Source of the DNA: Escherichia coli
Lineage (GTDB): Bacteria > Pseudomonadota > Gammaproteobacteria > Enterobacterales > Enterobacteriaceae
Assembly (NCBI RefSeq): GCF_013315695.1
Contig: NZ_CP054353.1
Direction: 5' to 3' (one strand)
Length of the DNA stretch: 64,000 nucleotides
A program made the position numbers and the translations under genes. A model generated the notes under the pieces. That model was not told the DNA's origin, made no database searches, and saw nothing but the letters and a program-made list of their open reading frames with translations. This document shows, piece by piece, positions 1 to 58,431 of this stretch (positions are counted from its first letter, which is position 1; the number at the start of each line of letters is the position of its first letter).

Positions 1-1041
1 AATGACATAGTAACCTCACTATACACAGATATAAAAGCACTGCAATTCTGGCTATTAATAGCAAAAATAGCAGTCAAATCAATATGAGGTAAAATTTTTT
101 GTTGATTTAATGGTTAAATAATAACTACAGTGTATTTTGCTGCTGAAGAAAGACAAAATGAATCTGTGTGTCCCCTCCTTCCCTTCGGAGCACATCCACT
201 ATTCAAATTTTACACAACCACGTACGAACAAAAAGCATCATCCCGGGTATTGCAGATACCGGTTTCCTGCCGGGAAGAATCATAAACAGAACACCGGGAA
301 TAACGCCTTCAGGAATCACCCCCCCCGATGAGAATGGATTAAAATAACACTTCTTCGACAAACACAAAAACAGCCTTCATTTTACATCATCATCCAGTTT
401 CAGTTAACCCCGGACGAGCGACAGTGTTTCAGTACAGGAATTAAAAGCCAGCTTTTGCTCAGTAAAACACACTCAACTAATAATATCTCAGCAGATATTA
501 TCCTGACCAGGACACCTCACATTACTGAATTCTCTTCCGACAGTATCACTGCACAAATAAAAAAGAACGGGATAAATATTCAGACCGGAAGAATGGTGTC
601 ACAAAAGCATTTAATCATTACGCATGACCAGGAAGGGAAACACTTAACCACATGGTATCAACAGATATCATTACGTGTGCACTCTTATAAAAAACACACA
701 GAAGAAGTAAGATAATTATAAACGTAAATTTAATATCTCCCACTGACATCTCCCCCACAATACACTAAAAAATACTCACAGCAGTAAACACAGACACACC
801 TGATAATCATACAGCCGATAAATATTTTCCCCTTTACGGAGAAATCAGCCTGCTGTTTAACAATAACGGCGTATTTTCATGGAAGGAGATCACCCAGTAA
901 CGGATAAGTCCTGATCTCCTTCATGTTAATACGCAACAATCCCATCGATTCAAAACAATTTCAGACAGATATTATCTCCGTGAATCCCCCGCCACCTTTC
1001 CGGTGCGCGGGGTTTTGTCTTTTTTCACCGGGAATACATGT

Positions 1042-1914
1042 ATGAATCCGTCTGATGCCATTGAGGCAATTGAAAAACCGCTCTCCTCCCTGCCTTACTC
1101 ACTTTCCCGTCACATCCTGGAACATCTGCGCAAACTCACCAGTCACGAACCCGTGATTGGCATTATGGGTAAAAGCGGGGCCGGTAAATCCTCACTCTGT
1201 AATGCACTGTTTCAGGGGGAGGTCACCCCGGTCAGTGATGTTCACGCCGGCACCCGGGAAGTGCGGCGCTTCCGTCTGAGTGGCCACGGTCACAGCATGG
1301 TTATCACTGACCTGCCCGGGGTGGGCGAGAGCCGGGACAGGGATGCAGAGTATGAAGCCCTGTACCGTGACATTCTGCCCGAACTGGACCTGGTGCTGTG
1401 GCTGATTAAAGCCGATGACCGCGCCCTGTCTGTGGATGAGTATTTCTGGCGACACATCCTGCACCGGGGACATCAGCAGGTGCTGTTTGTGGTGACGCAG
1501 GCCGACAAAACGGAGCCCTGCCATGAATGGGATATGGCCGGCATTCAGCCTTCTCCCGCACAGGCACAGAACATTCGGGAGAAAACGGAGGCGGTATTCC
1601 GTCTGTTCCGGCCCGTACATCCGGTTGTTGCCGTATCGGCCCGCACCGGCTGGGAACTGGATACGCTGGTCAGTGCGCTAATGACAGCACTTCCCGACCA
1701 TGCCGCCAGTCCCCTGATGACCCGCCTGCAGGACGAGCTGCGCACGGAATCTGTCCGCGCTCAGGCCCGTGAACAGTTTACCGGTGCGGTGGACCGGATA
1801 TTTGACACGGCGGAGAGCGTCTGTGTTGCCTCTGTTGCCCGTACGGTTCTGCGTGCCGTCCGTGACACGGTGGTCTCTGTTGCCCGCGCTGTATGGAACT
1901 GGATTTTCTTCTGA
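1042..1914 (+). CDS. YeeP/YkfA/YfjP-family GTPase-like protein (CP4-type island)
   Basis: ORF 1003..1914; likely start at internal ATG (MNPSDAIEAIEKP...). P-loop GKSGAGKSS and DLPG motif in translation; family typically sits upstream of flu in CP4-44-like islands. Confidence 0.8.
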   Translation: MNPSDAIEAIEKPLSSLPYSLSRHILEHLRKLTSHEPVIGIMGKSGAGKSSLCNALFQGEVTPVSDVHAGTREVRRFRLSGHGHSMVITDLPGVGESRDRDAEYEALYRDILPELDLVLWLIKADDRALSVDEYFWRHILHRGHQQVLFVVTQADKTEPCHEWDMAGIQPSPAQAQNIREKTEAVFRLFRPVHPVVAVSARTGWELDTLVSALMTALPDHAASPLMTRLQDELRTESVRAQAREQFTGAVDRIFDTAESVCVASVARTVLRAVRDTVVSVARAVWNWIFF

Positions 1915-2029
1915 ACAGTCTGCCAGGGAAATGCCTGATAACATTACGTTAACCAACTGAAAACATGACACAAACCCCTCATACTCCTCCTGTTTCTCTT
2001 GCGTGACCGCCTTGTCATTAATAGAATAA

Positions 2030-2070
2030 AACGATCGATAAAACAGGTATCTATCGTTGCTATCGATCGT
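2030..2070. promoter_or_regulatory. GATC cluster upstream of flu (candidate Dam/OxyR phase-variation switch)
   Basis: Canonical GATC at 2033-2036 and 2065-2068 in CGATCG contexts, with a GATC-like TATC at 2052-2055; position matches the agn43 regulatory region. Confidence 0.4.
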
Positions 2071-2285
2071 TTATAGTGGTTAATGGTCTGCGAAAAGGCA
2101 GCTGAATCTCTTCATCATGCAGAACGGAATTGCACACAACGGACTGATACTTCTCTGGCGGATGAGAGAGGGGAAGCATTTATGTCCGGGAAAAACCACT
2201 TTATCTGAGCATGCTGTTTTGTACCTGCCGGTATCCACATTTGTGGGTACCGGCTTTTTTATTCACCCTCTGTAAGGAAAAGCTG

Positions 2286-5200
2286 ATGAAACGACATCTG
2301 AACACCAGCTACAGGCTGGTATGGAATCACATTACGGGCACCCTGGTGGTGGCCTCCGAACTGGCCCGCTCACGGGGAAAACGCGCTGGTGTGGCGGTTG
2401 CGCTGTCTCTTGCTGCTGTCACATCAGTCCCGGCACTGGCTGCTGACAAGGTTGTACAGGCGGGAGAAACCGTGAACGACGGAACACTGACAAATCATGA
2501 CAACCAGATTGTCCTCGGTACGGCCAACGGAATGACCATCAGTACCGGTCTGGAGTATGGGCCGGATAACGAGGCCAATACCGGCGGACAATGGATACAA
2601 AATGGCGGTATCGCCAACAACACTACTTTCACCGGTGGTGGTCTTCAGAGAGTGAATGCCGGAGGAAGCGTTTCAGACACGGTTATCAGTGCCGGAGGCG
2701 GACAGAGCCTTCAGGGGCAGGCAGTGAACACCACTCTGAACGGCGGTGAGCAGTGGGTACATGAAGGCGGGATTGCAACGGGTACCGTCATTAATGAGAA
2801 GGGCTGGCAGGCCATCAAATCCGGCGCAGTGGCAACCGACACGGTTGTGAATACCGGCGCGGAAGGGGGACCGGATGCGGAAAATGGTGATACCGGGCAG
2901 ACCGTCTACGGAGATGCCGTACGCACCACCATCAATAAAAATGGTCGTCAGATTGTGGCTGCTGAAGGAACGGCAAATACCACTGTGGTTTATGCCGGCG
3001 GCGACCAGACTGTACATGGTCACGCACTGGATACCACGCTGAATGGGGGGTACCAGTATGTGCACAACGGCGGTACGGCGTCTGGCACTGTTGTAAACAG
3101 TGACGGCTGGCAGATTGTCAAAAACGGGGGTGTGGCCGGGAATACCACCGTTAATCAGAAGGGCAGACTGCAGGTGGACGCCGGTGGTACAGCCACGAAT
3201 GTCACCCTGAAGCAGGGCGGCGCACTGGTTACCAGTACGGCTGCAACCGTTACCGGCATAAACCGCCTGGGAGCATTCTCTGTTGTGGAGGGTAAAGCTG
3301 ATAATGTCGTACTGGAAAATGGCGGACGCCTGGATGTGCTGACCGGACACACAGCCACTAATACCCGCGTGGATGATGGCGGAACGCTGGATGTCCGCAA
3401 CGGTGGCACCGCCACCACCGTATCCATGGGAAATGGCGGTGTACTGCTGGCCGATTCCGGTGCCGCTGTCAGTGGTACCCGGAGCGACGGAAAGGCATTC
3501 AGTATCGGAGGCGGTCAGGCGGATGCCCTGATGCTGGAAAAAGGCAGTTCATTCACGCTGAACGCCGGTGATACGGCCACGGATACCACGGTAAATGGCG
3601 GACTGTTCACCGCCAGGGGCGGCACACTGGCGGGCACCACCACGCTGAATAACGGCGCCATACTTACCCTTTCCGGGAAGACGGTGAACAACGATACCCT
3701 GACCATCCGTGAAGGCGATGCACTCCTGCAGGGAGGCTCTCTCACCGGTAACGGCAGCGTGGAAAAATCAGGAAGTGGCACACTCACTGTCAGCAACACC
3801 ACACTCACCCAGAAAGCCGTCAACCTGAATGAAGGCACGCTGACGCTGAACGACAGTACCGTCACCACTGATGTCATTGCTCAGCGCGGTACAGCCCTGA
3901 AGCTGACCGGCAGCACTGTGCTGAACGGTGCCATTGACCCCACGAATGTCACTCTCGCCTCTGGTGCCACCTGGAATATTCCCGATAACGCCACGGTGCA
4001 GTCGGTGGTGGATGACCTCAGCCATGCCGGACAGATTCATTTCACCTCCACCCGCACAGGGAAGTTCGTACCGGCAACCCTGAAAGTGAAAAACCTGAAC
4101 GGACAGAATGGCACCATCAGCCTGCGTGTACGCCCGGATATGGCACAGAACAATGCTGACAGACTGGTCATTGACGGTGGCAGGGCAACCGGAAAAACCA
4201 TCCTGAACCTGGTGAACGCCGGCAACAGTGCGTCGGGGCTGGCGACCAGCGGTAAGGGTATTCAGGTGGTGGAAGCCATTAACGGTGCCACCACGGAGGA
4301 AGGGGCCTTTATCCAGGGGAATAAGCTGCAGGCCGGTGCCTTTAACTACTCCCTCAACCGGGACAGTGATGAGAGCTGGTATCTGCGCAGTGAAAATGCT
4401 TATCGTGCAGAAGTCCCCCTGTATGCCTCCATGCTGACACAGGCAATGGACTATGACCGGATTCTGGCAGGCTCCCGCAGCCATCAGACCGGTGTAAGCG
4501 GTGAAAATAACAGCGTCCGTCTCAGCATTCAGGGCGGTCATCTCGGTCACGATAACAACGGCGGTATTGCCCGTGGAGCCACGCCGGAAAGCAGCGGCAG
4601 CTATGGCTTCGTCCGTCTGGAGGGTGACCTGCTCAGAACAGAGGTTGCCGGTATGTCTGTGACCGCGGGGGTATATGGTGCTGCTGGCCATTCTTCCGTT
4701 GATGTTAAGGATGATGACGGCTCCCGTGCCGGCACGGTCCGGGATGATGCCGGCAGCCTGGGCGGATACCTGAATCTGATACACAACGCCTCCGGCCTGT
4801 GGGCTGACATTGTGGCCCAGGGAACCCGCCACAGCATAAAAGCCTCATCGGACAATAACGACTTCCGCGTCCGGGGCCGGGGCTGGCTGGGTTCGCTGGA
4901 AACCGGTCTGCCCTTCAGTATCACTGACAATCTGATGCTGGAGCCGCAACTGCAGTACACCTGGCAGGGACTCTCCCTGGATGACGGCCAGGATAACGCC
5001 AGTTATGTGAAGTTCGGGCATGGCAGTGCACAACATGTGCGTGCCGGTTTCCGTCTGGGCAGCCACAACGATATGACCTTTGGTGAAGGCACCTCATCCC
5101 GTGACACCCTGCGCGGCAGTGCCAAACACAGTGTGCGTGAACTGCCGGTGAACTGGTGGGTACAGCCTTCTGTTATCCGCACCTTCAGCTCCCGGGGGGA

Positions 5201-5405
5201 CATGAGCATGGGTACAGCCGCAGCCGGCAGTAACATGACGTTCTCACCGTCACAGAATGGTACGTCACTGGACCTGCAGGCCGGACTGGAAGCCCGTGTC
5301 CGGGAAAATATCACCCTGGGCGTTCAGGCAGGTTATGTCCACAGCGTCAGCGGCAGCAGCGCTGAAGGCTATAACGGTCAGGCCACGCTGAATGTGACCT
5401 TCTGA
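2286..5405 (+). CDS. flu: Antigen 43 self-associating autotransporter
   Basis: 1039-aa product from MKRHLNTSYRLVWNHITGTLVVASELARS..., extended signal peptide, Gly/Thr/Asn-rich beta-helix passenger, C-terminal beta-barrel ending ...LNVTF. Confidence 0.92.
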   Translation: MKRHLNTSYRLVWNHITGTLVVASELARSRGKRAGVAVALSLAAVTSVPALAADKVVQAGETVNDGTLTNHDNQIVLGTANGMTISTGLEYGPDNEANTGGQWIQNGGIANNTTFTGGGLQRVNAGGSVSDTVISAGGGQSLQGQAVNTTLNGGEQWVHEGGIATGTVINEKGWQAIKSGAVATDTVVNTGAEGGPDAENGDTGQTVYGDAVRTTINKNGRQIVAAEGTANTTVVYAGGDQTVHGHALDTTLNGGYQYVHNGGTASGTVVNSDGWQIVKNGGVAGNTTVNQKGRLQVDAGGTATNVTLKQGGALVTSTAATVTGINRLGAFSVVEGKADNVVLENGGRLDVLTGHTATNTRVDDGGTLDVRNGGTATTVSMGNGGVLLADSGAAVSGTRSDGKAFSIGGGQADALMLEKGSSFTLNAGDTATDTTVNGGLFTARGGTLAGTTTLNNGAILTLSGKTVNNDTLTIREGDALLQGGSLTGNGSVEKSGSGTLTVSNTTLTQKAVNLNEGTLTLNDSTVTTDVIAQRGTALKLTGSTVLNGAIDPTNVTLASGATWNIPDNATVQSVVDDLSHAGQIHFTSTRTGKFVPATLKVKNLNGQNGTISLRVRPDMAQNNADRLVIDGGRATGKTILNLVNAGNSASGLATSGKGIQVVEAINGATTEEGAFIQGNKLQAGAFNYSLNRDSDESWYLRSENAYRAEVPLYASMLTQAMDYDRILAGSRSHQTGVSGENNSVRLSIQGGHLGHDNNGGIARGATPESSGSYGFVRLEGDLLRTEVAGMSVTAGVYGAAGHSSVDVKDDDGSRAGTVRDDAGSLGGYLNLIHNASGLWADIVAQGTRHSIKASSDNNDFRVRGRGWLGSLETGLPFSITDNLMLEPQLQYTWQGLSLDDGQDNASYVKFGHGSAQHVRAGFRLGSHNDMTFGEGTSSRDTLRGSAKHSVRELPVNWWVQPSVIRTFSSRGDMSMGTAAAGSNMTFSPSQNGTSLDLQAGLEARVRENITLGVQAGYVHSVSGSSAEGYNGQATLNVTF

Positions 5406-5519
5406 CAGAACCATCGCCTCTCTGTGGTCCCGGTCATCATGATCGGGACCCGGACCGGCGCAACGGATATTCAACGCCACATTCGCTGGCATTAACAATA
5501 ACATGATATTCATCACGGA

Positions 5520-8042
5520 GTGACTATGTTACAGATAGTCGGCGCGCTGATCCTGCTGATCGCAGGATTTGCCATTCTTCGCCTTTTGTTCAGAGCATTA
5601 ATCAGCACGGCTTCTGCGCTGGCAGGGCTCATATTGCTGTGTCTGTTCGGCCCGGCCTTACTGGCTGGCTATATCACCGAACGCATAACCCGGTTGTTCC
5701 ATATTCGCTGGCTGGCAGGCGTATTTCTGACGATTGCCGGAATGATCATCAGCTTCATGTGGGGACTTGATGGTAAACATATCGCGCTGGAGGCTCACAC
5801 CTTTGACTCTGTGAAATTTATTCTGACCACCGCTCTCGCCGGTGGTCTGCTGGCTGTTCCCCTGCAGATCAAAAACATTCAGCAGAACGGGATCACACCA
5901 GAAGATATCAGCAAGGAAATTAACGGGTATTACTGCTGTTTTTATACTGCCTTTTTCCTTATGGCGTGTTCTGCATGCGCACCATTGATCGCGTTACAGT
6001 ACGATATTTCACCGTCACTGATGTGGTGGGGCGGGTTGTTGTACTGGCTGGCTGCATTAGTGACGCTGCTATGGGCGGCCAGCCAAATCCAGGCGCTGAA
6101 AAAACTGACCTGTGCCATCAGCCAGACACTGGAAGAACAACCGGTGCTCAACAGTAAATCGTGGCTGACCAGTTTGCAAAACGATTACAGCCTTCCTGAC
6201 TCACTGACGGAGCGCATCTGGCTGACGCTCATTTCTCAACGGATTTCCCGGGGAGAACTGAGGGAATTTGAACTGGCAGACGGAAACTGGCTACTGGACA
6301 ATGCCTGGTATGAAAGAAACATGGCGGGTTTCAACGAAAAGCTGAGAGAGAGCCTGTCATTTACCCCTGATGAACTGAAAACCCTCTTCCGGAACCGCCT
6401 GAATTTATCACCGGAAGCGAATGACGATTTTCTCGATCGTTGCCTGGACGGCGGTGACTGGTACCCCTTTTCAGAAGGTCGCCGTTTTGTATCATTCCAT
6501 CACGTGGATGAGCTTCGTATCTGTGCCTCCTGCGGGCTGACAGAAGTACATCATGCCCCGGAAAATCATAAGCCGGATCCGGAATGGTACTGCTCCTCTC
6601 TTTGTCGCGAAACAGAAACACTGTGTCAGGAAATTTATGAACGCCCTTACAACAGCTTTATTTCCGATGCAACGGCGAATGGTCTGATTCTCATGAAACT
6701 GCCGGAAACCTGGAGTACAAATGAGAAAATGTTTGCTTCCGGAGGGCAGGGACATGGGTTTGCCGCTGAACGGGGAAACCATATTGTCGACAGAGTCCGT
6801 CTGAAAAACGCACGGATCCTCGGTGATAATAATGCCAGAAATGGAGCAGACAGACTGGTCAGCGGAACAGAAATCCAGACGAAATATTGTTCAACTGCAG
6901 CCCGTAGCGTCGGTGCGGCATTCGACGGACAAAACGGACAGTATCGTTACATGGGAAATAATGGCCCCATGCAACTGGAAGTCCCCCGTGATCAGTATGC
7001 CGGCGCTGTTGAAACCATGAGGAATAAGATCCGCGAAGGTAAAGTACCCGGTGTAACCGATCCCGCAGAAGCGTCCAGGCTGATTCGTCGGGGACATCTG
7101 ACTTATACCCAGGCCCGTAATATCACCCGGTTCGGGACCATCGAATCGGTCACTTATGATATTGCCGAGGGTTCGGTTGTCAGTCTGGCGGCCGGAGGGA
7201 TCAGTTTTGCCCTGACGGCATCGGTCTTCTGGCTCAGCACCGGCGATCGCGATGCTGCCCTGCAGACAGCTGCTGTCCAGGCAGGAAAAACCTTCACCCG
7301 CACACTGGCTGTCTACGTCACAACCCAGCAACTCCACCGGCTCAGTGTTGTTCAGGGTATGCTGAAGCACATTGATTTTTCGACTGCCAGCTCGACTGTC
7401 CGACTGGCTCTTCAGAAGGGGACCAGTGCAGGAAATATCAGTGCCCTGAACAAAGTGATGAAGGGTACGCTGGTGACATCTCTGGCACTGGTAGCTGTCA
7501 CAACCGGCCCTGACATGATCAAAATGTTGCGGGGACGGATCTCCGGTACGCAGTTCATCAGGAATCTTGCCGTGGCATCTTCCGGTGTGGCAGGTGGTGC
7601 TGTCGGGTCAGTGGCGGGCGGAATACTGTTCAGTCCACTGGGACCATTTGGTGCACTGACAGGGCGTGTGGTTGGCGGTGTTCTGGGGGGAATGATTGCC
7701 TCCGCTGTATCAGGAAAAATTGCCGGAGCGCTGGTTGAAGAAGATCGCGTCAAAATTCTGGCAATGATTCAGGAGCAGGTGACATGGCTTGCCGGCAGTT
7801 TCCTGCTGACCGGACATGAGATTGAAAATCTGAACGCGAATCTGGCCCGTGTTATCGATCAGAATGCTCTGGAGATCATTTTCGCCGCCGGTATACAACA
7901 ACGGGCCGCGACCAATATGTTAATCAAACCACTGGTGGTCAGTATCATCAGGCAACGCCCCGTCATGGAATATGATGCATCCCATCTCGGCAATATGGTT
8001 AACCGACTGGAAGAAGCATTACCCCCGGAGTTACCGGCATAA
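5520..8042 (+). CDS. YeeR-like inner membrane protein (island-encoded, unknown function)
   Basis: 840-aa ORF with N-terminal hydrophobic segments, Cys-rich CASCGLTEVHH...WYCSSLC motif and C-terminal Gly-rich hydrophobic region; position after flu as in CP4-44. Confidence 0.6.
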   Translation: MTMLQIVGALILLIAGFAILRLLFRALISTASALAGLILLCLFGPALLAGYITERITRLFHIRWLAGVFLTIAGMIISFMWGLDGKHIALEAHTFDSVKFILTTALAGGLLAVPLQIKNIQQNGITPEDISKEINGYYCCFYTAFFLMACSACAPLIALQYDISPSLMWWGGLLYWLAALVTLLWAASQIQALKKLTCAISQTLEEQPVLNSKSWLTSLQNDYSLPDSLTERIWLTLISQRISRGELREFELADGNWLLDNAWYERNMAGFNEKLRESLSFTPDELKTLFRNRLNLSPEANDDFLDRCLDGGDWYPFSEGRRFVSFHHVDELRICASCGLTEVHHAPENHKPDPEWYCSSLCRETETLCQEIYERPYNSFISDATANGLILMKLPETWSTNEKMFASGGQGHGFAAERGNHIVDRVRLKNARILGDNNARNGADRLVSGTEIQTKYCSTAARSVGAAFDGQNGQYRYMGNNGPMQLEVPRDQYAGAVETMRNKIREGKVPGVTDPAEASRLIRRGHLTYTQARNITRFGTIESVTYDIAEGSVVSLAAGGISFALTASVFWLSTGDRDAALQTAAVQAGKTFTRTLAVYVTTQQLHRLSVVQGMLKHIDFSTASSTVRLALQKGTSAGNISALNKVMKGTLVTSLALVAVTTGPDMIKMLRGRISGTQFIRNLAVASSGVAGGAVGSVAGGILFSPLGPFGALTGRVVGGVLGGMIASAVSGKIAGALVEEDRVKILAMIQEQVTWLAGSFLLTGHEIENLNANLARVIDQNALEIIFAAGIQQRAATNMLIKPLVVSIIRQRPVMEYDASHLGNMVNRLEEALPPELPA

Positions 8043-13316: not shown

Positions 13317-13704
13317 CATCGTATGCAAATCGAGTCGCTCAAGGGCGGCTTTTTTTGTACCTGTGTTTTCACTACTTTGTTTGCATGTAACGCTGATAAT
13401 CTAAGAACTTCGGAAGCCCCATTTCCATCAATGATGTTCATTCATCATCCTGAAAATTAAGTAGATATAAAACTTCATTGCCTTGGTCTAATGGCACAGA
13501 AATAGATTGCATTTGGCGAGTGGCATTCTTAGTGCGTCGTTGTTTAGTCATGAAACGATGCGTAAAATTGCTGATTTTATGTGTCAAAGTCCCGCAACCG
13601 GAGATGGCCTTACTTCAATGATCAACCACTATTGACGTATCCTTTTAATATCTTGATTCAATTCAGCAGGTTATCGTCCAAAGTACAGCGAAGAGAGAGA
13701 AAAG

Positions 13705-16596
13705 ATGATTGGTACAACACCTTATCATGCGAAATATTTTGCGCATGAACTTTCCATTCTTCATTCAAACAATGGGGTGGACCGTCTGTCTCAATCGCTG
13801 TTTGATGCAAGCGTAGATCTAAACCCTCATCAAATTGAGGCGGCTCTTTTTGCTATCGAAAATCCGCTAAGCAAAGGTGTTGTGCTTGCCGATGAAGTTG
13901 GTTTGGGTAAAACCATTGAAGCTGGACTAGTGCTTTGCCAGTTGTGGGCTGAAAGAAAACGTAAACTGTTGATCATTTGTCCTGCTTCACTGCGTCGCCA
14001 ATGGGCGAGCGAGTTACAGGAAAAGTTCAATCTACCTTCTCAGGTGTTGGACGCGAAAATGTATAGCCAGCTTCAAAAAGAAGGGATCCATAATCCCTTA
14101 AATAATAAATCGATCACTATTATGTCATACCACTATGCTGCTCGGTTAGAAGAGAAATTGGTGGCTGAAATGTGGGATCTGGTTGTTATCGACGAAGCCC
14201 ATAAACTGCGTAATGCTCATCGAGAAAGCAACAAAATGGGGCAAGCGTTAAAGCGTGCGCTTGATGGGCGGAAGAAATTACTACTGACCGCAACGCCTTT
14301 ACAGAACTCGTTGATGGAACTGTATGGCATGTCGACGCTTATAGATGAACATACCTTCGGCGAAGTTAAAGCGTTCAGAAAGCAATATATGCAGGCAGAT
14401 AGCGATATTGCGGAGTTGAAGGGGCGATTGTCGCGTTTTATCAAACGAACTCTACGCAAGAATGTGCTGGAGTATATCAAGTATACAGAACGTAAAGCGA
14501 TCACTATTCCTTTCTATCCGAGCGAACAGGAGCAGGATCTTTATGAACGCGTACAAAAATTGCTTGAACGTGAGGATAGCTATGCCTTACCAAAACGACA
14601 CCGGCATCTGACGGGGCTTATACTCAGAAAACTACTTTCCTCAAGTACGAAAGCCGTATTGAATAACTTGCAGATCCTTAAGACTCGTTTAGAAAGGTTA
14701 AAGCTGGAAGGTATCGTTGAAGATGATATGGACATCATCCAACAGATCATAATGGATGATGATCTTGAAGATGACATCGTTGAAGATGCCGAATCAGTAG
14801 CGCCAGATACAGAGTGCAAATCTGTGGATTCAGATGCGCTTCAGGCAGAAATCAATGAGCTGGAATCACTCATTGTTAAAGCAGAACAGATTGGCACTGA
14901 TACCAAATCAAAAGAGTTGCTTTCTGGCCTGGAGCAAGGTTTTGCACAGCTTGCCGAAATGGGGGCTGCAAAAAAAGTCATCATCTTCACGGAGTCGATG
15001 CGAACTCAACAGTACCTTGCACATTTTCTGGAAAACAATGGCTACCAGGGAAAAGTAGTAACCTTTAGTGGCACAAACAATACACCGCAGGCAAACAAGA
15101 TCTACCAGCAATGGCGCGAGGAATATCAGGGATCTTCTCGTATTACCGGGTCGGCGCAAATTGATAAACGCTCGGCTTTGATCGACCACTTCAAAGATCA
15201 TGCTGAAATCATGATAGCTACAGAAGCTGCAGCTGAAGGGGTGAACCTGCAATTTTGTTCGCTACTGATCAATTACGATTTACCCTGGAACCCACAACGC
15301 ATTGAGCAGCGTATTGGACGTTGTCACCGATACGGGCAAAAATTTGATGTGGTTGTTATTAACTTCCTCAATCAGCGAAACCAGGCCGATCAACGCGTTC
15401 TTGAACTCTTAACTGAAAAGTTCAGCCTGTTTGATGGCGTGTTTGGCGCATCGGATAGTGTGCTTGGCAGCATAGAAAATGGTGTGGATTTTGAAAAAAG
15501 GATCCAGTCAATTTATGAGTCATGCCGTACCCCCGAGGAGATAGAGCTGGCTTTTGAAAGGTTGCAGAAAGAGCTGGAAGATGAAATCAATCTCAAGATG
15601 CAGAAGACGCAAGAACAGTTGCTTGAGCATTTTGATGAAGATATTCACGATATCCTTAAAATAAGGCTTGATGAAGCTCGGGAGCGCCTGGATAAAGTCG
15701 GTCGTTGGTTTTGGGCCGTGACCTGTCAGCAGCTCAAACAATATGCTGATTTTGATCATGAGCATCATCGTTTCACTTTACGTGAATCAGTCAATGAACT
15801 GCCTGTCGGGCAGTACCAGCTGTTGCGCAAAGATGGCAGGCAAAATAGTGCGTTACAAATGCAGGATCACCACAGTTTTGCATATCGGATCAATCATCCA
15901 CTGGGTGAGTACGTCATTGACGGAGCCAAAGCCCAGGAGACGAAAACAGCTGAAGTCATCTTCGATTACAGTAACCACACAACGAAAGTTTCGGTGGCTG
16001 AGCAGCTGAAAGGGCAATCAGGATGGTTAACACTAAATTTGCTTACTGTTGATGCGTTTAACAGGCAGCAATTTTTAGTCTTTACCGCGAAAACTGACAA
16101 CGGACGTGTGGTAGATGGTGAAGCTTGTAAACGTCTGTTCAACTTGTCTGCAATAACCAACGAAAAGCTGGATAATTCGGCAAGTTTAGATGCATTACCT
16201 GATGACTTGATCTTACTCAAGAACAGGCAAATTGACGCCAGGCTTGCAGAAGTTTTGGAGCAGAACAATGTCCTTTTTGAAGCGGAAAGAGATAAGCTGG
16301 AAAAATGGGCTGAAGACATGATCTTTGCGGCGGAAGAAGCATTACGCGATACCAAAATGCAAATCAAGTCGTTGAAGCGAGAAGCCAGGCTGGCGCAATC
16401 GATCGAAGAACAAAAGCAAAACCAGGAAAAGCTTAAGCTCCTGGAACGGCAGCAGAAGCGCCAACGTATGGAAATTTTTGACATTGAAGATGAGATCGCC
16501 GACAAGCGGGATGAACTCATCAGTGCCCTTGAAGAGCGGATGAAGCAAAAGACGGATATCACCGAGCTGTTTACCATCCGCTGGAAAGTTATTTAA
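13705..16596 (+). CDS. SNF2-family helicase-like ATPase with C-terminal coiled-coil region
   Basis: Motifs in translation: LADEVGLGKTIEAG (Walker A), VVIDEAHKLRN (DEAH-like), LLLTATPLQN, INYDLPWNPQRIEQRIGRCHRYGQ (motifs V-VI); C-terminal ~350 aa rich in E/K/Q heptad-like repeats. Strong RBS aagagagagaaaag before ATG. Confidence 0.85.
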   Translation: MIGTTPYHAKYFAHELSILHSNNGVDRLSQSLFDASVDLNPHQIEAALFAIENPLSKGVVLADEVGLGKTIEAGLVLCQLWAERKRKLLIICPASLRRQWASELQEKFNLPSQVLDAKMYSQLQKEGIHNPLNNKSITIMSYHYAARLEEKLVAEMWDLVVIDEAHKLRNAHRESNKMGQALKRALDGRKKLLLTATPLQNSLMELYGMSTLIDEHTFGEVKAFRKQYMQADSDIAELKGRLSRFIKRTLRKNVLEYIKYTERKAITIPFYPSEQEQDLYERVQKLLEREDSYALPKRHRHLTGLILRKLLSSSTKAVLNNLQILKTRLERLKLEGIVEDDMDIIQQIIMDDDLEDDIVEDAESVAPDTECKSVDSDALQAEINELESLIVKAEQIGTDTKSKELLSGLEQGFAQLAEMGAAKKVIIFTESMRTQQYLAHFLENNGYQGKVVTFSGTNNTPQANKIYQQWREEYQGSSRITGSAQIDKRSALIDHFKDHAEIMIATEAAAEGVNLQFCSLLINYDLPWNPQRIEQRIGRCHRYGQKFDVVVINFLNQRNQADQRVLELLTEKFSLFDGVFGASDSVLGSIENGVDFEKRIQSIYESCRTPEEIELAFERLQKELEDEINLKMQKTQEQLLEHFDEDIHDILKIRLDEARERLDKVGRWFWAVTCQQLKQYADFDHEHHRFTLRESVNELPVGQYQLLRKDGRQNSALQMQDHHSFAYRINHPLGEYVIDGAKAQETKTAEVIFDYSNHTTKVSVAEQLKGQSGWLTLNLLTVDAFNRQQFLVFTAKTDNGRVVDGEACKRLFNLSAITNEKLDNSASLDALPDDLILLKNRQIDARLAEVLEQNNVLFEAERDKLEKWAEDMIFAAEEALRDTKMQIKSLKREARLAQSIEEQKQNQEKLKLLERQQKRQRMEIFDIEDEIADKRDELISALEERMKQKTDITELFTIRWKVI

Positions 16597-16616
16597 TTGA
16601 TTTGAAAGAGAAAATA

Positions 16617-19600
16617 ATGAGTAAGTACAACGAATTAGTTAAGAAGCTAAAAGAAATTTTTCAGATTGATCGACCAGAACTGGATTTCGGTATTTATCGT
16701 ATTTTAAATGCGCGTGCTGATGAAATTAACGACTATCTGGATAATAAGCTGAAGGCCAAAATCCAGTCTGCGCTGGCGGATGCAGGAAATGCCAATAAAT
16801 CAGAATTAGAACATCAGTTGCAACTGACAATAAAAGCGGCAACTGATGCGGGTGTAGACCCTGCTGATAGCCCAAAAGTACAGGAGCTTAAAAAGCAACT
16901 GGCGGCTATGGCATCCGGAGCAAATGAGCATGAAAATGCAGTATTTTCCCATCTGCTCACTTTCTTTTCGCGTTATTATGACAACGGCGATTTTATCAGC
17001 AAACGCCGTTATAAAGGTAATACCTACGCCATCCCCTATTCTGGCGAAGAAGTGATGTTGCACTGGGCAAATAAGGACCAGTACTACATTAAAAGCGGTG
17101 AAAACTTCGCTAATTATTCGTTCAAATTAGAAGACGGTCGTAAAGTTAGCTTTAAATTGCTCGCAGCGGACACAGCAAAAGATAACCGTAAAGATAATGA
17201 ATTAGATCGCTGCTTTGTACTTATTGAGCCACATGTTCGTACCAAAATTGATGAAGAAGGCGATGAGTACGAACAAGAATATAAGCCAGTAGAAGTGGTG
17301 AAAAACTCATCTGTGGTGGACGGTAAACTCGTTGAAACAGAAGAGTTAGTTATTCACTTCGAATATAAGGCAATGAAAAAGGGCACTAAGCAGGATGCTT
17401 TAGTACAGTCCGCCATTTCAACAATTCTGGCAGATAAAACAGTTCAACAGCATTGGGTTGATCTTGCTAAACGTGCGCCAACAGAAAAGAATCCGTCACG
17501 TACAGAGTTGGAGCGTCACCTTACAACTTATACCCAGCGTAATACAGCAGACTACTTTATCCATAAAGATCTCGGTGGTTTTTTAACGAACGAACTGGAT
17601 TTTTATATTAAAAATGAAGTAATGAATCTCGATAATGTGCAAAATGCAGAAGTGTTTGCCAATGTTGAGAAACAATTGCGCATGATTCAATGTTTGCGTG
17701 CTGTTGCGCTGGAACTCATTACATTTTTGGCACAAATTGAGAATTTCCAGAAAAAACTTTGGACTAAGAAGAAGTTTGTTGTTGGGCATGAGTATCTTGT
17801 GTCACTTTCAAATCTATCAGATTCGCTTTACGATAAAATTCGAACTAATAAAGGGCAACATGATGAATGGGTTGAGCTTTATGCTGTAAATAAAATTCCT
17901 GGATATTCATTTCCATTCACAAAAGATTTCTTGTATAAAAATAATGGTATGATATTGGATACAAAATATTTTGATCCGTCATTTAAGGAGGTTTTTTTAA
18001 CAGAGTTAACTAATGTTGACGATAATTTAGATGGTCTCTTAATTAATTCAGATAATTATCAGGCCATTAATTTTTTGGAGGGGCGGTATAAGGACTCAAT
18101 AGACTGTCTTTATATTGATCCTCCGTATAATACTGCGGCTTCAGAAATTTTATATAAAAATGAATATAAGCACAGCAGCTGGAATTCATTAATGTATGAA
18201 AGGATATCTAAAAGCTATAATTTACTGAAAATTTCTGCAATTAATTTTACCGCGATAGATCATGCGGAATTATATAATCTTGGTAAGATCAAGGATGAAA
18301 TCTATGGAGAACAAAACAGGATAGCAGTTGTTACTGTTCAGCATAATCCTAAAGGGCGTAACCAGGCAAAGTTCTTTTCTGAAAATACTGAGTATATGTT
18401 AGTATATGCTAAAGATTTTAATGCTGCTAACTTTAACTCTGTAGCTATCGATGAGGATGTGCTTTTAACATTCACAGAACAAGATAATATAGGCCGTTAT
18501 CGTTGGGAAAACTTTATTCGTGCAAGAACAAGTTGGTCCAGAGCAAATAGACCAAATAACTGGTATCCTTTATACGTCTCTTCCGACTTAAAATCAATTT
18601 CTGTTGATTATGTAGATGGGTATATCGAAGTATATCCTACAACTAAACAGGGGGATTTTTCGTGGAAAAATATTAAAGAATCATTTGTTGAATTAAATAA
18701 AGATAATTATTTTAAAGCTGTAAATGAAAATGGAGAAATAAAAATCTATCATAAATATAGGGAGCAGCAAGTCTTTAAAAATCTTTGGATTGATAAGAAA
18801 TATCAGTCTGAGTTTAATGGTACAAATTTACTGAAAAACATACTTGGACAATCACTATTTGATTATCCGAAATCATTATATGCAGTACAAGATGCAATCA
18901 AAATGTCGACACCACACAATGGTATTGTATTGGACTATTTTGCAGGTTCAGGGACAACTTCTCATGCAGTAATAAACCTTAATAATTCAGATAATCTCTG
19001 TATGAAATTTATCAATGTTGAAATGGGTACTCATTTCAATACAGTAGTTATTCCAAGATTGAAGAAAATTGGATATTCAAACTTATGGAAACAATGTAAA
19101 CCAATCGGTAAACCTCAAAAAATGACTATCAAGTATTTGAAACTTGAAAGTTATGAGGATGCTCTTAATAATATACAATTACGAAGTTATTCATTGCATC
19201 AGGATATTTTCGACATTTTGGTGGAAGATGTAAAATCAGAGTTTGCTCTTAAATATATTTTTGAAAATGAATTATTTTATTCACTATTAAATACTGATAA
19301 TTTCAAAAAACCATTTAACTACGAAATGGATATTGCGACGGATTCCGCCGGTGCCACTGAGCGTAAAAACATCGATTTAGTTGAAACTTTCAATTATCTC
19401 ATTGGCTTACATGTGAAATCCATCGAATCTGATATCGCACGTGGCTATGTGCGTATTGAAGGAACGCTGCCAACAGGCGAGCGTACCCTTATTCTGTGGC
19501 GCGATTGCGACAAGATCGGTTATGAAGAATTGAATAAATATGCCAACCGATTTGATTTGTATGCAAAAGAAAACACGTTCGACGTTATCTACATCAATGG

Positions 19601-19721
19601 CGATCATAACTTACCTACCGCCTTTACCGTTGATGAAGAAGACGGCGAGATTGTTCGTAGCCTGAAAATTCGCCAGATCGAACCTGAATTCTTGAACCTG
19701 ATGTTTGCGGAGGAGGTTTAA
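16617..19721 (+). CDS. Mod-like amino-methyltransferase (beta-class, DPPY) with ~500-aa N-terminal domain of unknown function
   Basis: ORF 16602..19721; preferred start ATG 16617 (RBS gaaagag). DCLYIDPPYN (motif IV) precedes VLDYFAGSGTTSHAV (motif I) by ~270 aa, the order seen in Type III Mod enzymes. Stop overlaps SD of next gene. Confidence 0.85.
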   Translation: MSKYNELVKKLKEIFQIDRPELDFGIYRILNARADEINDYLDNKLKAKIQSALADAGNANKSELEHQLQLTIKAATDAGVDPADSPKVQELKKQLAAMASGANEHENAVFSHLLTFFSRYYDNGDFISKRRYKGNTYAIPYSGEEVMLHWANKDQYYIKSGENFANYSFKLEDGRKVSFKLLAADTAKDNRKDNELDRCFVLIEPHVRTKIDEEGDEYEQEYKPVEVVKNSSVVDGKLVETEELVIHFEYKAMKKGTKQDALVQSAISTILADKTVQQHWVDLAKRAPTEKNPSRTELERHLTTYTQRNTADYFIHKDLGGFLTNELDFYIKNEVMNLDNVQNAEVFANVEKQLRMIQCLRAVALELITFLAQIENFQKKLWTKKKFVVGHEYLVSLSNLSDSLYDKIRTNKGQHDEWVELYAVNKIPGYSFPFTKDFLYKNNGMILDTKYFDPSFKEVFLTELTNVDDNLDGLLINSDNYQAINFLEGRYKDSIDCLYIDPPYNTAASEILYKNEYKHSSWNSLMYERISKSYNLLKISAINFTAIDHAELYNLGKIKDEIYGEQNRIAVVTVQHNPKGRNQAKFFSENTEYMLVYAKDFNAANFNSVAIDEDVLLTFTEQDNIGRYRWENFIRARTSWSRANRPNNWYPLYVSSDLKSISVDYVDGYIEVYPTTKQGDFSWKNIKESFVELNKDNYFKAVNENGEIKIYHKYREQQVFKNLWIDKKYQSEFNGTNLLKNILGQSLFDYPKSLYAVQDAIKMSTPHNGIVLDYFAGSGTTSHAVINLNNSDNLCMKFINVEMGTHFNTVVIPRLKKIGYSNLWKQCKPIGKPQKMTIKYLKLESYEDALNNIQLRSYSLHQDIFDILVEDVKSEFALKYIFENELFYSLLNTDNFKKPFNYEMDIATDSAGATERKNIDLVETFNYLIGLHVKSIESDIARGYVRIEGTLPTGERTLILWRDCDKIGYEELNKYANRFDLYAKENTFDVIYINGDHNLPTAFTVDEEDGEIVRSLKIRQIEPEFLNLMFAEEV

Positions 19722-19723
19722 GA

Positions 19724-22700
19724 ATGGCTAAAAAACCGACCACCGGTAAAGCAGTTAAAAAAGAGACTAACAGCAAGCTGAGCTTTCATAAACAACTGGT
19801 TTTAAACCGCTTTATGTTCCATTTTTTCAAAGATGGCACATTGCAAGGTTTGAAGAATCGGTTAGGCGAGGATCGCTTTGAAGGCATCCATGAAGATGGC
19901 CAAAGCTTGTTCTTCCATGAGCTGAGTAACTATTTATTCGAGGTCGATCTAATCGATCTCGATGAACTGCGTCGTTACGATCTCAATATCGTGCAGCACT
20001 GGCAGCAGATAACCGAGCACCGTAATCGTAAAGAAGACACTGTGCTGAACATGAAATATTTTCAGTACTTGTCGCTTCTGTTTACCGAGATCTACCTGGA
20101 CTGGTACTTCAATCGTAAACAGCAATTACTCGATGGGCTAAATAACGAGCTGGCAGCATACAATGCTGAAAATGATAAAACAGCAAAAGACCGGGCTAAT
20201 CAGTTCAAATCATATGTTCTGGATGATTTGAATAAATTGGCATACTGGAACGCTACTGGTTCTGGTAAGACACTGCTATTACATGTCAATATTTTGCAAT
20301 ATTTACATTATTTCCAGAACGGTAATAGCCATCATTATCCGGATAAAATCATCCTGCTTACGCCGGATGAACGCCTGTCGAAGCAACATTTAGATGAACT
20401 GGAAAACTCAGGGTTTACCCAATACCAGTTGTTCGATAAGAGTAAATCAGCGCCCTTCAAAGGCACGATTGAAGTCATTGATATCAATAAACTTGATGAT
20501 AAAATGGGCGACAAAACTGTTGCCGTTGAGGCATTTGAAGGCAACAATCTGGTCCTGATTGATGAAGGGCATAAAGGCACAGGAAGTGCTGCTGGTGCCT
20601 GGATGCGCCGTCGTGACAAGTTAACTCGTGACGGATTTGCGTTTGAATATTCAGCAACTTTTGGCCAGGCAGTAGCCGGTGGCAATAATGTGGAGGCAGT
20701 TGAAACAGAAATTCAGAAGAAAAAAGCAAAGCTGCTTTTTGAAACAACTGCCTTAGGCAAATTGAGCGAAGAAGAGTTAGCACAAATAGCATTAACCAGC
20801 GAAGAACAACGTGATGCGCGTATTCAGGCGACGCGAGAAGTCTATGGGAAATCGATTCTGTTCGATTACTCCTATAAATTCTTCTATGAGGATGGTTATG
20901 GCAAAGAATCACTGATTCTTAACCTTAATCCGCAAGATGATAAAAAAGATGAGCGTCGGTATGAGTATTTTACCGCGTGTTTGCTCAGCTTTTATCAGCA
21001 ACAATATTTATTCAATAAAAATAAAGAAAAATTAAATGAATTTAATATCGAAAAACCGCTGTGGGTTTTTGTCGGTAATTCTGTAAGTGGTGAAGATTCA
21101 GACATTCACGCAGTATTGCGTTTTTTAGCATGGTTTTTAAACCACGAAACGCAGGCAAAAGCGTGGATTAACGATCTCATTAAAAATAAAGCGCGAATCC
21201 TCGATACCAAAGAGCGTAACATTTTTGAAAATCGCTTTACTGCACTAATGAACGCTCCGGAAGATATCTACGCAGATATTCTTTCTCGCTTGTTTAACAC
21301 CACTCACTCTGGTCAGCGACTGCGAGTTCTGAATTTAATAGGCAGTAAAGGTGAACTGGCATTACAGGTTGGTGAGGCCGAACCGTTTGGCCTTATCAAT
21401 ATTGGTGATGCACCGTCTCTTTACAAAATGTGTGAAGAGGATACGACATTTGATTATCAGAGAGATGATTTTGCAAAGTCGCTCTTTCATACGTTAAATG
21501 ACAAAGACTCGCGACTACATATTTTGATCGGCTCGCGAAAATTTACTGAAGGCTGGAGCAGTTGGCGCGTCTCAACGATGGGATTGCTCAATATGGGCCG
21601 TGGAGAAGGTTCACAGATCATTCAGTTATTTGGCCGTGGCGTTCGCCTTAAAGGTCGCAATTATTCTTTGAAACGCAGTACACCCGGTGAGCGTCCGAAA
21701 GGGTTGCATCTGGAAAAATTAGAGACACTGAATGTATTCGGTGTACGTGCCGATTACATGGCAACCTTTAAACAATACCTGGAAGATGAAGGGATTACGC
21801 CAAGTGACGAGATCCTTGAGCTGAATTTTGAAACTCGGCCAAATATGCCAGCAACCAGGCTTAAAACACTTAAGCTCAAAGATGGTTATAAAGATAATCA
21901 AAGACTCGGCTTTAAACGTGTCTATTTTCCCGAATTGTATGAAGTTCCTGCTGATTTTCAGGGGAAAATTAAGCAGCCGCATATTAAGCTGGACCTATAC
22001 CCGAAACTTGAGTCGATTGATACCAGCAGAAAAGGGGAAAATACTCCGGTTAACGTGCGTAATGAAGCGAAGTTAGATTATAAAATCATTAGTGCGTTTG
22101 ATTTTGATCGGCTTTATCTCGCCATTCAGAATTATAAACTACAACGCGGCTGGTCAAATTTACGTGTGGATAAACAACGTTTGATCGACTTTTGTACCGG
22201 TAAGACAAAGATCGGAAATAGTTGGTATACCCTTTTGATTCCAGCTTCAGAACTTGAGATTAAGCAATATGCAGATATTGCTAAGCAGGAAGATATTATG
22301 CTTCGTCTGCTGACTGATTATACTGATCGCTTTTACAACACATTGAAAAATGCTTATGAAGGTCAGTTTTATGAAGTCACGCAGGTGAAAGAAGATGATC
22401 CTGGTATGATCAAAATGTACCATTTCGAGATCGAAGAAACTGATGATGGGTTGGCATATGCCAGTCGGCTGGAACAATTACAACAATTGGTCATCGACGG
22501 CGAAATCGGTAAAGCAAAATCCTGGAGTGCATCCGGGATGGTTGCTATTACCTTTGATAAACATCTCTATTATCCACTTCTTTCGATTGAAAAAAATGCC
22601 AACATACCGCTAAAAATGCGACCGGCAGCACTGGGTGCATCAAGTGAGATTACTTTTGTCCATGATCTTCAGTCTTTTGTTGATTCGACAAAAGGGCAGA

Positions 22701-43084: not shown

Positions 43085-43243
43085 CTTATTATAATAAGCG
43101 CAAGGGTAAACGTTCCTTGCGCTTTCTTAAATTAAGAAGTCGCAATGAGTATTACTTTGTAAATTGCAGGGTATTGTTTAGCTATCTGTATAACCTGAAC
43201 GTGAGTACTCATTCTTCTCAGTGGCTATTTACCAATATAATTC

Positions 43244-44011
43244 GGTAATGACTCCAACTTATTGATAGTGTTTTATGTTCAGATAATGCCCGATGACTTT
43301 GTCATGCAGCTCCACCGATTTTGAGAACGACAGCGACTTCCGTCCCAGCCGTGCCAGGTGCTGCCTCAGATTCAGGTTATGCCGCTCAATTCGCTGCGTA
43401 TATCGCTTGCTGATTACGTGCAGCTTTCCCTTCAGGCGGGATTCATACAGCGGCCAGCCATCCGTCATCCATATCACCACGTCAAAGGGTGACAGCAGGC
43501 TCATAAGACGCCCCAGCGTCGCCATAGTGCGTTCACCGAATACGTGCGCAACAACCGTCTTCCGGAGCCTGTCATACGCGTAAAACAGCCAGCGCTGGCG
43601 CGATTTAGCCCCGACATAGCCCCACTGTTCGTCCATTTCCGCGCAGACGATGACGTCACTGCCCGGCTGTATGCGCGAGGTTACCGACTGCGGCCTGAGT
43701 TTTTTAAGTGACGTAAAATCGTGTTGAGGCCAACGCCCATAATGCGGGCTGTTGCCCGGCATCCAACGCCATTCATGGCCATATCAATGATTTTCTGGTG
43801 CGTACCGGGTTGAGAAGCGGTGTAAGTGAACTGCAGTTGCCATGTTTTACGGCAGTGAGAGCAGAGATAGCGCTGATGTCCGGCGGTGCTTTTGCCGTTA
43901 CGCACCACTCCGTCAGTAGCTGAACAGGAGGGACAGCTGATAGAAACAGAAGCCACTGGAGCACCTCAAAAACACCATCATACGCTAAATCAGTAAGTTG
44001 GCAGCATCACC
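43244..44011 (-). mobile_element. IS1 (768 bp), simple insertion with 9-bp target duplication
   Basis: Ends ggtaatgactccaacttattgatag ... cagtaagttggcagcatcacc; insA (43681..43956) and insB (43259..43762) ORFs; ATATAATTC at 43235-43243 and 44012-44020. Inserted 4 codons before the stop of the split yjiC-like gene. Confidence 0.93.
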
Positions 44012-44418
44012 ATATAATTCCATTCACCATTTTTTAATTCAAACAGCTCTGGAAGAGATGACGGTTGCAGAGTCATACGTTTGAGTGGTGCATTTTCATC
44101 ACCCGGGATAACTTTATATCCCATTTTTGCATGGATCTCCGCTGTACCGGGATAGGCTTCTATACCAATTATTGGGTCATTACCCAACTCAATATTAGCA
44201 TTAAGTAATGCGGCAAGGGCGAATCCGGAAGAGTTTGCCACCCCTGAGACAGTCATTATCTGATCAATATAGATATCAATCCTTGGCTGCTCATTGGTCC
44301 ATCTTTTTGCCTGAGAAGTTGGAAGAGTTGAAATATATCCTATCGTGGTTCCGGCGTAACCTGGAACATTGCAGCCAGGGCCTAATGTTATTTCATGAAC
44401 TGTATAGTCCTCAACAGG
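44012..44418 (-). pseudogene. C-terminal half of an IS1-split gene (yjiC-like by position)
   Basis: Minus-strand frame is open from the IS1 junction at 44418 (PVEDYTVHEITLGPGC...) through ...ELKNGEWNY into the IS1 at 44011; bypassing the IS1 the frame continues IGK-stop at 43225-43227. Confidence 0.6.
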
Positions 44419-45186
44419 GGTAATGACTCCAACTTACTGATAGTGTTTTATGTTCAGATAATGCCCGATGACCTTGTCATGCAGCTCCACCGATTTTGAG
44501 AACGACAGTGACTTCCGTCCCAGCCTTGCCAGATGTTGTCTCAGATTCAGATTATGTCGCTCAATGCGCTGAGTGTAACGCTTGCTGATAACGTGCAGCT
44601 TTCCCTTCAGGCGTGATTCATACAGCGGCCAGCCATCCGTCATCCATACCACGACCTCAAAGGCCGACAGCAGGCTCAGAAGACGCTCCAGTGTGGCCAG
44701 AGTGCGTTCACCGAAGACGTGCGCCACAACCGTCCTCCGTATCCTGTCATACGCGTAAAACAGCCAGCGCTGACGTGATTTAGCACCGACGTAGCCCCAC
44801 TGTTCGTCCATTTCAGCGCAGACAATCACATCACTGCCCGGTTGTATGCGCGAGGTTACCGACTGCGGCCTGAGTTTTTTAAGTGACGTAAAACCGTGTT
44901 GAGGCCAACGCCCATAATGCGTGCACTGGCGCGACATCCGACGCCATTCATGGCCATATCAATGATTTTCTGGTGCTTACCGGGCTGAGAGGCGGTATAA
45001 GTGAACTGTAGTTGCCATGTTTTACGGCAATGAGAGCAGAGATAGCGCTGATGTCCGGCAGTGCTTTTGCCGTTACGCACCACGCCTTCAGTAGCGGAGC
45101 AGGAAGGACATCTGATGGAAATGGAAGCCACGCAAGCACCTTAAAATCACCATCATACACTAAATCAGTAAGTTGGCAGCATTACC
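44419..45186 (-). mobile_element. IS1 variant copy (768 bp)
   Basis: Divergent insA/insB (Ins[17 protein letters not shown]...); left flank ctcaacagg is the reverse complement of CCTGTTGAG, which flanks the fourth IS1 copy at 58846-58854. Confidence 0.9.
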
Positions 45187-45456
45187 AAATTTTAATTACA
45201 CTTAAGGTGTATATTTTCTATGCAAGCCATCAATTAAAGAGGTGTAATGTGCTGATGACTATTTGTAATCGTTATACATTCTGACCTGGAGTCAGAAGGT
45301 ATTTCTCTGTCGGTGTGTTCACAGGCAGTGTGGTTGATTACATGAAATTCAGTACATTTGCAGTCTCGTTGCCCTTCTCGCCTGCCTTTCGTCATTACCG
45401 ACGGTATTGAATTTCGTTTTGCCCGTTGGGGTTCTCCGGACAAGGAGTTGTTTGTT

Positions 45457-56983: not shown

Positions 56984-57440
56984 TTTGCGCACTCCTGACG
57001 TTTAGCAACATATGCGGCTTGCCCTGAACACCGGGCACCACTGTATTGATGCTCATTTTCCATAGCCATTCCCTTTTGTTCATTACATCCATGTCAGTCT
57101 GAGACAGGCCTGAATCCTGTCAGCAAAGTATAAAACCTTACTTGCCTATGAATATCTACTGACTTTTCAGGAAAAAAGTCATGATTTGATAAAAATCATC
57201 AAACTCAAAAAAAAACCGCTAGTATATTCTGAATATTCCGAATAGTTACGTAGATGAAAATACTTGTCACCACCGCTACTTAATTCCGGTGGGAAATTAT
57301 TTATTTCCGCATAATCAGCCATGTATTATTTAAAACAATTAGTTTGTAAATAATATAAATTGATAACATATCAAATACATCAAAAATACCATTCACAGGC
57401 ATTATTAATATAGACATCAATATAGCAACATCAAATTCCA

Positions 57441-58208: not shown

Positions 58209-58431
58209 CAAATTCCAATTAGTAATAAGATATGCTTTTAAATTGCATGCAAATAATTTTAAATGAGCGTTTTTTGATACTTTAGAGTGTTTCCCACCAT
58301 TTAATATCACTGTGTAGAGTTGATATCACTACAACAGAAACATGCATGTCATTTGTTTACTTCTCTTTTTACTACAGAAAAATTTATCTATTTTTCTAAG
58401 CATCAGTGAAATACTCATAAAGGTAACTATT

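Follow-up and report, generated by a model that had tools for sequence, protein, structure and literature searches.

The on/off switch of the adhesin gene agn43, a textbook example of bacterial epigenetic inheritance, normally works with three Dam methylation sites. The locus described here raises the question of whether a copy with two of these sites is still such a switch, and in what way it would differ from the three-site form. It lies in a 64 kb stretch of Escherichia coli DNA (the window), where an intact agn43 (flu) follows a yeeP-like GTPase gene and positions 1915 to 2285 are the intergenic stretch that separates the two. The original prediction, made from the letters of this stretch, placed GATC at 2033 and 2065 and took the TATC at 2052 to be a middle site that may have been lost. 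Both coordinates are exact (2033-2036 and 2065-2068), and the reading of the TATC is borne out by the comparison with other alleles given below.

The regulatory region and its two GATC sites

The gene downstream of the region is an Ag43 equivalog. Its product scores 1898 bits against the NCBIfam model NF033177 (auto_Ag43), which has a cut-off of 1200, and the sequence upstream of the CDS (2286-5405) is homologous to the region upstream of K-12 flu. The corresponding gene is annotated as agn43 in two isolates, AF3 and MSB1_4I, and the gene order YfjI, GTPase, agn43, yeeR-like is common to the window and to both of them. The upstream gene gives weak GTPase matches in an NCBIfam search and contains no GATC; the identical region in AF3 is 873 nt long and is annotated as a GTPase family protein. 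The features of the locus are listed in Table 1.

Table 1. Coordinates of known and predicted features at the agn43 locus, in positions of the window.
Feature	Position	Strand	Remarks
yeeP-like GTPase family gene	1042..1914	+	ORF ends at 1914; directly upstream of the regulatory region
-35-like hexamer TTGCGT (inferred by homology)	1999..2004	+	aligns with K-12 CTCTTGTCC; 17 bp upstream of the -10 hexamer
Predicted OxyR half-site A, ATAGAATAAAACGAT	2021..2035	.	8/10 consensus bases; overlap with the -10 hexamer and with GATC-I (first three bases)
-10 hexamer TAGAAT (inferred)	2022..2027	+	invariant in all sampled alleles; inside AATAGAATAAAAC
agn43 leader, IsrC/IS102-like RNA	2031..2267	+	Rfam RF00124
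GATC-I, kept	2033..2036	.	homologue of K-12 L001 2318; its G is the probable transcription start
Former GATC-II, now TATC	2052..2055	.	inactivated by G2052T
Predicted OxyR half-site B, ATCGTTGCTATCGAT	2053..2067	.	8/10 consensus bases; bracketed by GATC-II and GATC-III
GATC-III, kept	2065..2068	.	assigned from the sequence and same-class alleles
Terminator-like hairpin and T run	2227..2260	+	12 pairs (2227-2254); end of the leader; matches the 3' hairpin of the Rfam model
agn43 (flu), intact, 1039 aa	2286..5405	+	ATG at 2286, frame open to 5405

The GATCs of K-12 MG1655 are at positions 2318, 2337 and 2350 of the K-12 sequence (L001), with spacings of 19 and 13 bp. Measured against this canonical arrangement of three GATCs, the window has only GATC-I and GATC-III, and the distance between them is 32 bp, the same as in K-12 (19 + 13). 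The nearest GATCs beyond these two are at positions 913 and 5441. Canonical sites at other positions would have spoken against a loss, and none is found within 1.1 kb upstream or 3.4 kb downstream.

The position homologous to 2052-2055 is GATC in all ten of the genome alleles sampled, namely nine of the same class as the window (L003-L011) and K-12. The nine alleles are from complete E. coli genomes, are 88-99% identical to the region and include O157:H7 cah, O104:H4 and O26. All nine read GGTAT(C/T)-GATC-GT, ungapped, where the window reads GGTATC-TATC-GT. Because the same-class alleles all have GATC there and no gaps, the TATC at 2052 is taken as the homologue of GATC-II with a G-to-T change. 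Judged by these alleles, GATC-II has become TATC through one derived substitution, G to T at 2052. A pairwise MAFFT alignment with K-12 gave another picture, with a 13 bp insertion between GATC-I and GATC-II and the loss of GATC-III, which is an artefact of an internal quasi-repeat, TATCGATCG. This reading was dropped because the same-class alleles show an ungapped single-base difference and because of the TATCGATCG repeat. The alignment with K-12 that had been proposed as a check misplaces the loss to GATC-III when it is done naively, and it is the same-class alleles that confirm the middle site. Sequencing error is rejected as the source of T2052, since three independent complete assemblies other than the window have the T as well.

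The number of sites is not in itself unusual. Two GATCs in 371 bp compare with about 1.3 expected from the window-wide density, and the 230 GATCs across the 64 kb window, against 241 in shuffles, are at the level of chance. What gives the two-GATC observation its weight is not the count but homology and conservation.

The -10 hexamer is 6-11 bp upstream of the G of GATC-I, and the block AATAGAATAAAAC-GATC is invariant among the sampled genome alleles and metagenome contigs. A sigma-70 consensus scanner called no promoter, the -35 element being too weak, and the promoter elements are assigned by homology only. In the K-12 annotation the 5' end of isrC is exactly at the G of GATC-I; by homology, transcription in the window should start at G2033. 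The remark in the original prediction that isrC is annotated here in K-12 agrees with this annotation and with a match to Rfam RF00124 at 2031-2267, which has a score of 66.1 bits (gathering score 46, E = 2e-10) and covers the full model, positions 1-206. We equate RF00124 (IS102) with the IsrC family. Three pairs in the model's 5' hairpin are non-canonical in the window sequence, and the terminator-like hairpin is the best-conserved block between the window and K-12. As far as can be read from the sequence, nothing is damaged in GATC-I, GATC-III, the two promoter hexamers, the leader and its terminator hairpin, or the reading frame of agn43.

Rarity, constraint and carriers of the TATC allele

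The allele class to which the window belongs is common: of 5,426 complete E. coli genomes, 3,246 have it. Only three of the 5,426, namely AF3, MSB1_4I and PCN061, contain the exact 66 bp core (2020-2085). When T2052 is changed to G, the 371 bp have an exact match in two genomes, AF14 and a sister isolate, and the number of records at 99% identity or more rises from 330 to 575. AF14 itself differs from the window at one position over 360 bp, which is 2052. By these comparisons G2052T is the derived state.

Constraint on the sites was estimated from metagenomes, with a pattern scan in which the three tetranucleotides and the variable spacer positions were left free. It returned 120 contigs, 116 of which keep all three GATCs and 119 of which have GATC at the middle site. 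Over the same 49 bp of these 120 contigs, minor alleles have a mean frequency of 0.28% at the 12 GATC bases, against 21% at the 13 other free positions. Polymorphism at the GATC bases is thus about 75 times lower than at their free neighbours, across both allele classes. On this measure the three sites are under strong constraint in both classes.

Four metagenome contigs (L028, L067, L076 and L090) have each lost one site, in four different ways: site I reads AATC in one and GATG in another, site II reads AATC in a third, and site III reads TATC in the fourth. The change at site III of L067 turns TATCGATC into the tandem TATCTATC and is of the same kind as that in the window, where TATC-GATC becomes a perfect tandem TATC-TATC. 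As a matter of speculation, the tandem hints at a templated, repeat-driven mutation. Some of the metagenome contigs are of very low coverage and may contain assembly errors.

Two of the three genomes with the exact core are close relatives of the window strain. AF3, a blood isolate from the UK, is 99.83% identical to the window and MSB1_4I, from a rectal swab in Australia, 99.88%, over 6-8 kb. Both have an intact agn43 of 3,120 nt, and in each of them megablast matches the regulatory region to one location only. Since the window is identical to neither, it represents a further member of the group. The allele is thus carried by a small clade (the window strain, AF3 and MSB1_4I), and it is the only copy of the regulatory region that megablast finds there.

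The third genome, that of the porcine strain PCN061 (L012, NZ_CP006636.1 319173-331238, locus 6001-7527), has the same TATC core in a diverged background, at 97.3% identity. There the core adjoins a type I restriction-modification system and precedes a frameshifted, truncated agn43. Compared with its nearest sampled relatives PCN061 differs at +31 (the T) and at +38, and at both positions it is as in the window type. On the sequence, a short recombination tract fits the T of PCN061 as well as recurrence does.

Because the TATC core of PCN061 stands before a truncated agn43, the variant can accompany decay of the locus. The substitution in the window could then be an early step of such decay under relaxed selection, in which regulated Ag43 is no longer needed and the regulatory mutation is the first lesion. 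Truncated ORFs behind two of the four metagenomic GATC-loss variants would agree with this, as would a nonsense mutation in the same lineage in fimB, the gene of the recombinase of another adhesin switch. The agn43 ORF of 1039 aa is nevertheless intact in the window, AF3 and MSB1_4I. Truncation is also frequent behind three-GATC alleles (16/91), and with 2/4 on the other side the numbers are too few and the association is not significant; the low-coverage contigs among the metagenomes may, moreover, carry assembly errors. Decay is accordingly considered improbable as the explanation of the window's allele.

Other features of the stretch

The agn43 CDS (3,120 bp, 2286-5405) contains no GATC. 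The same is true of K-12 flu and of 76 of 78 intact agn43 alleles, a set that covers both length classes; the remaining two alleles have one GATC each. Permutation of synonymous codons, with the protein and the codon usage kept, leads to an expectation of 8.8 GATCs in the CDS, and none of 1,000 permutations had zero. Markov models give 9.4 (first-order) and 7.9 (second-order). The CDS is also without TCGA (5.5 expected) and AATT (4.6 expected). The yeeR-like gene just downstream of agn43 has 19 GATCs in 2.5 kb. The GATCs of the switch are isolated in 4.5 kb (914-5440) that are otherwise GATC-free. The absence of GATC from the agn43 CDS was not found mentioned in the accessible literature. Possible reasons for it are insulation from processive Dam or from SeqA clusters, or reduced MutH-directed repair.

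The fimB gene of the window (28752-29354) has a nonsense mutation, Q162*, by a change of CAG to TAG (stop codon 29235-29237), which shortens FimB from 200 to 161 aa. The part lost presumably includes the catalytic C-terminal region, by membership of the tyrosine-recombinase family. The annotation of MSB1_4I shows the same internal stop, and the exact fimB 61-mer is present in 8 of the 5,426 genomes, including AF3 and MSB1_4I, both of which carry the TATC allele before an intact agn43. The fim switch region (30428-30925) is collinear with the MG1655 reference. A fimB nonsense mutation in the TATC lineage means that a second adhesin phase switch is altered there.

At about 13,700-23,100 (positions 4490198-4499597 of the MSB1_4I record) there are, going by the annotation of MSB1_4I, genes for an SNF2-related protein, a site-specific DNA methyltransferase of 1,034 aa and a DEAD/DEAH-box helicase family protein. 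The three genes form a cluster that has the look of a defence or restriction island, with a CP4-44-like island on one side and nanC on the other. If the lineage has a second methyltransferase, for adenine or cytosine, this could matter for the reading of methylome data. IS1 copies are found at about 43,200-45,200 and 57,400-59,600, two with 99.3-99.6% and two with about 91% identity to IS1A of PCN061. According to the MSB1_4I annotation they flank a truncated DUF2686 gene near mdtM and uxuR.

Predicted OxyR half-sites and the probable working of the two-site switch

Binding sites for OxyR were sought with the consensus of the dimer half-site, ATAGnTnnnAnCTAT (15 bp, 10 consensus bases), followed by a test for a spacing of 32 bp, which is the canonical centre-to-centre distance for reduced OxyR (PMC4856963). 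Half-sites A and B of Table 1, beginning at 2021 and 2053, are the only pair with at least 8/10 consensus bases at this spacing in the 64 kb, where shuffles lead one to expect 0.005. A spacing of 22 bp gives no pair with at least 8/10 anywhere in the window. The 37 bp consensus of the oxidised form matched in several equal-scoring registers, was uninformative and was replaced by the half-site scan. Arrangements of the gtr or opvAB type, in which three or more half-sites let OxyR sit in one of two mutually exclusive places, are not found either, as the window has one pair only.

The same pair is predicted in K-12, at L001 2306 and 2338, in the same positions relative to the rest of the region. 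In the context G-ATCGTTGCTATCGAT-C, GATC-II and GATC-III bracket half-site B and are 13 bp apart. Polymorphism within half-site B falls mainly at the central non-consensus positions 7-9, with the exception of position 6 (a consensus T), which varies in 8 of the 120 contigs. G2052 is one base off half-site B and is the sole base of GATC-II outside the predicted 15 bp consensus. The T should therefore remove one methylation target and spare the OxyR consensus. Each predicted half-site keeps one methylatable edge, GATC-I for A and GATC-III for B.

One of the equal-scoring registers puts a half-site at 2049-2063, where G2052 is the conserved G of ATAG and the T lowers the score from 8 to 7 of 10. 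As a consensus base G2052 could in that register contribute to binding, so that its change could weaken OxyR binding and push the switch towards ON. The substitution might instead be felt in the leader RNA; there it is G20U, falls within the 5' hairpin as modelled by Rfam (IS102) and shifts the predicted fold from a GATC-I/II pairing to a GATC-I/III pairing. In either case agn43 would be ON-biased or derepressed. Mutations of opvAB GATCs that spared the consensus still altered expression in a dam background, which lends this some weight. The register common to K-12 and gtr, however, puts G2052 outside the consensus. The energies of the two leader folds, -14.6 and -13.3 kcal/mol, represent a small change, and neither fold exceeds shuffled sequences (z about -1.7). 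An effect mainly through weaker OxyR binding or the leader RNA is judged very improbable.

The locus resembles known Dam/OxyR switches to different degrees. With K-12 agn43 it shares the gene, the invariant block up to GATC-I, the span between the outer GATCs, the predicted half-site pair, the leader RNA family and the terminator hairpin. It is unlike K-12 in its middle site, and in the 15 bp that separate GATC-I from GATC-II, as over most of the leader, it is of the other, commoner allele class; against records of the K-12 type megablast matches only query bases 308-371 (window 2222-2285). The three-GATC regions of the same class (AF14, FDAARGOS_497, O157:H7 cah) are identical or nearly so over the 371 bp, but keep GATC-II, and some have DUF905 and DUF932 genes after agn43 rather than a yeeR-like gene. 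In the gtr operons of Salmonella and phage P22, as with the predicted half-sites here, half-sites are bracketed by pairs of GATCs 13 bp apart (PMC2909390) and are spaced as reduced OxyR requires; a further likeness is the mutual block, of OxyR by methylation and of Dam by OxyR. Unlike the window with its one predicted pair, gtr has a set of three half-sites and offers OxyR two alternative positions, of which one activates and the other represses, whereas OxyR is solely a repressor at agn43. Salmonella opvAB also has half-sites 32 bp apart for reduced OxyR, overlapped by single GATCs that suffice for a working switch (PMC4856963), but it differs in having four of each, half-sites and GATCs, in the role of OxyR as an activator, and in the place of the switch, which is upstream of the promoter, while that of agn43 lies across the transcription start. 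No natural two-GATC allele is described in the accessible literature, which also yielded nothing relevant on single-site mutants of agn43 and outside of which are the primary papers on single-site mutagenesis of agn43. By its sequence the window holds the known agn43 switch region, of the common non-K-12 allele class and in a rare point-mutant form that lacks one defining trait of the canonical type, the three GATCs.

By analogy with these systems, it is probable that the region is a two-site form of the agn43 Dam/OxyR phase switch that still depends on Dam and OxyR, with a less stable ON state and a population biased towards OFF. An OxyR tetramer in the reduced-form mode would bind half-sites A and B, 32 bp apart. 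Its span, 2021-2067, would cover the -10 hexamer and the transcription start and so repress by occlusion. GATC-I would be at the edge of half-site A, and GATC-II and GATC-III at the two edges of half-site B. T2052 would abolish Dam methylation at site II and leave the OxyR consensus untouched, in the manner of the engineered changes of GATC to CATC. The gtr and opvAB studies changed this same base of GATC to block methylation, and the CATC and GATG mutations of gtr were picked because the OxyR consensus is unaltered by them (PMC2909390).

The switch would be expected still to phase-vary in dependence on Dam and OxyR, because each half-site keeps one methylatable edge, as in opvAB. In opvAB single-site mutants the sizes of the ON and OFF subpopulations shift and bistability is not abolished. 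At agn43, how far OxyR affinity drops is stated to depend on how many GATCs there are (PMC2909390), and OxyR can bind hemimethylated DNA after replication, which has been described as the key step from ON to OFF (PMC3145626, PMC13337833). In the two-site form fewer methyl groups would oppose OxyR, on fully methylated and on hemimethylated DNA. The ON state would thus be inherited less stably and the ON-to-OFF rate would be higher. Escape from OFF would have fewer routes, and the net bias of the population would be towards Ag43-OFF. The direction and size of this effect rest on analogy and reasoning, and the OxyR register is a consensus prediction. The original prediction held that methylation-dependent switching could be altered; the analogies suggest that the alteration is a changed ON/OFF bias rather than a loss of switching.

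Part of this evidence would serve as well for a substitution that is functionally silent, with two methylated GATCs, one per half-site, excluding OxyR as well as three do, with switching rates unchanged and the T drifting neutrally. A methylatable edge is kept on each predicted half-site, and opvAB functions with one GATC per regulated half-site. Single-GATC losses occur elsewhere at low frequency, in 4 of 120 metagenome contigs and in two cases before intact genes, and the variant has lasted long enough to turn up in samples from both the UK and Australia. The low polymorphism of the GATCs relative to their neighbours in both allele classes points the other way, to purifying selection on each site, as does the occurrence of the exact variant in just 3/5,426 genomes. 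Neutrality is thus possible but unlikely.

The two-site allele might, on the other hand, be an adaptive re-tuning, in which altered rates or bias were selected in a human-associated lineage (blood, gut). This is regarded as distinctly doubtful. If true, adhesin phase variation would have been re-programmed in a coordinated way, through G2052T and the inactivation of FimB together. The two-site switch would, in addition, serve as a ready natural test of the buffering of epigenetic inheritance by several methylation sites, as reportedly put forward by Lim and van Oudenaarden in 2007.

No new mechanism is implied by the two-site allele, which probably shifts the frequency of switching and creates nothing new. 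A clinical lineage in which the sole copy has two sites, and which is one base from the three-site allele of AF14, is material of an isogenic style. Such material could show how many methylation sites are needed and how their number sets switching rates. The strain itself may differ in the fraction of cells that express Ag43, aggregate and form biofilms.
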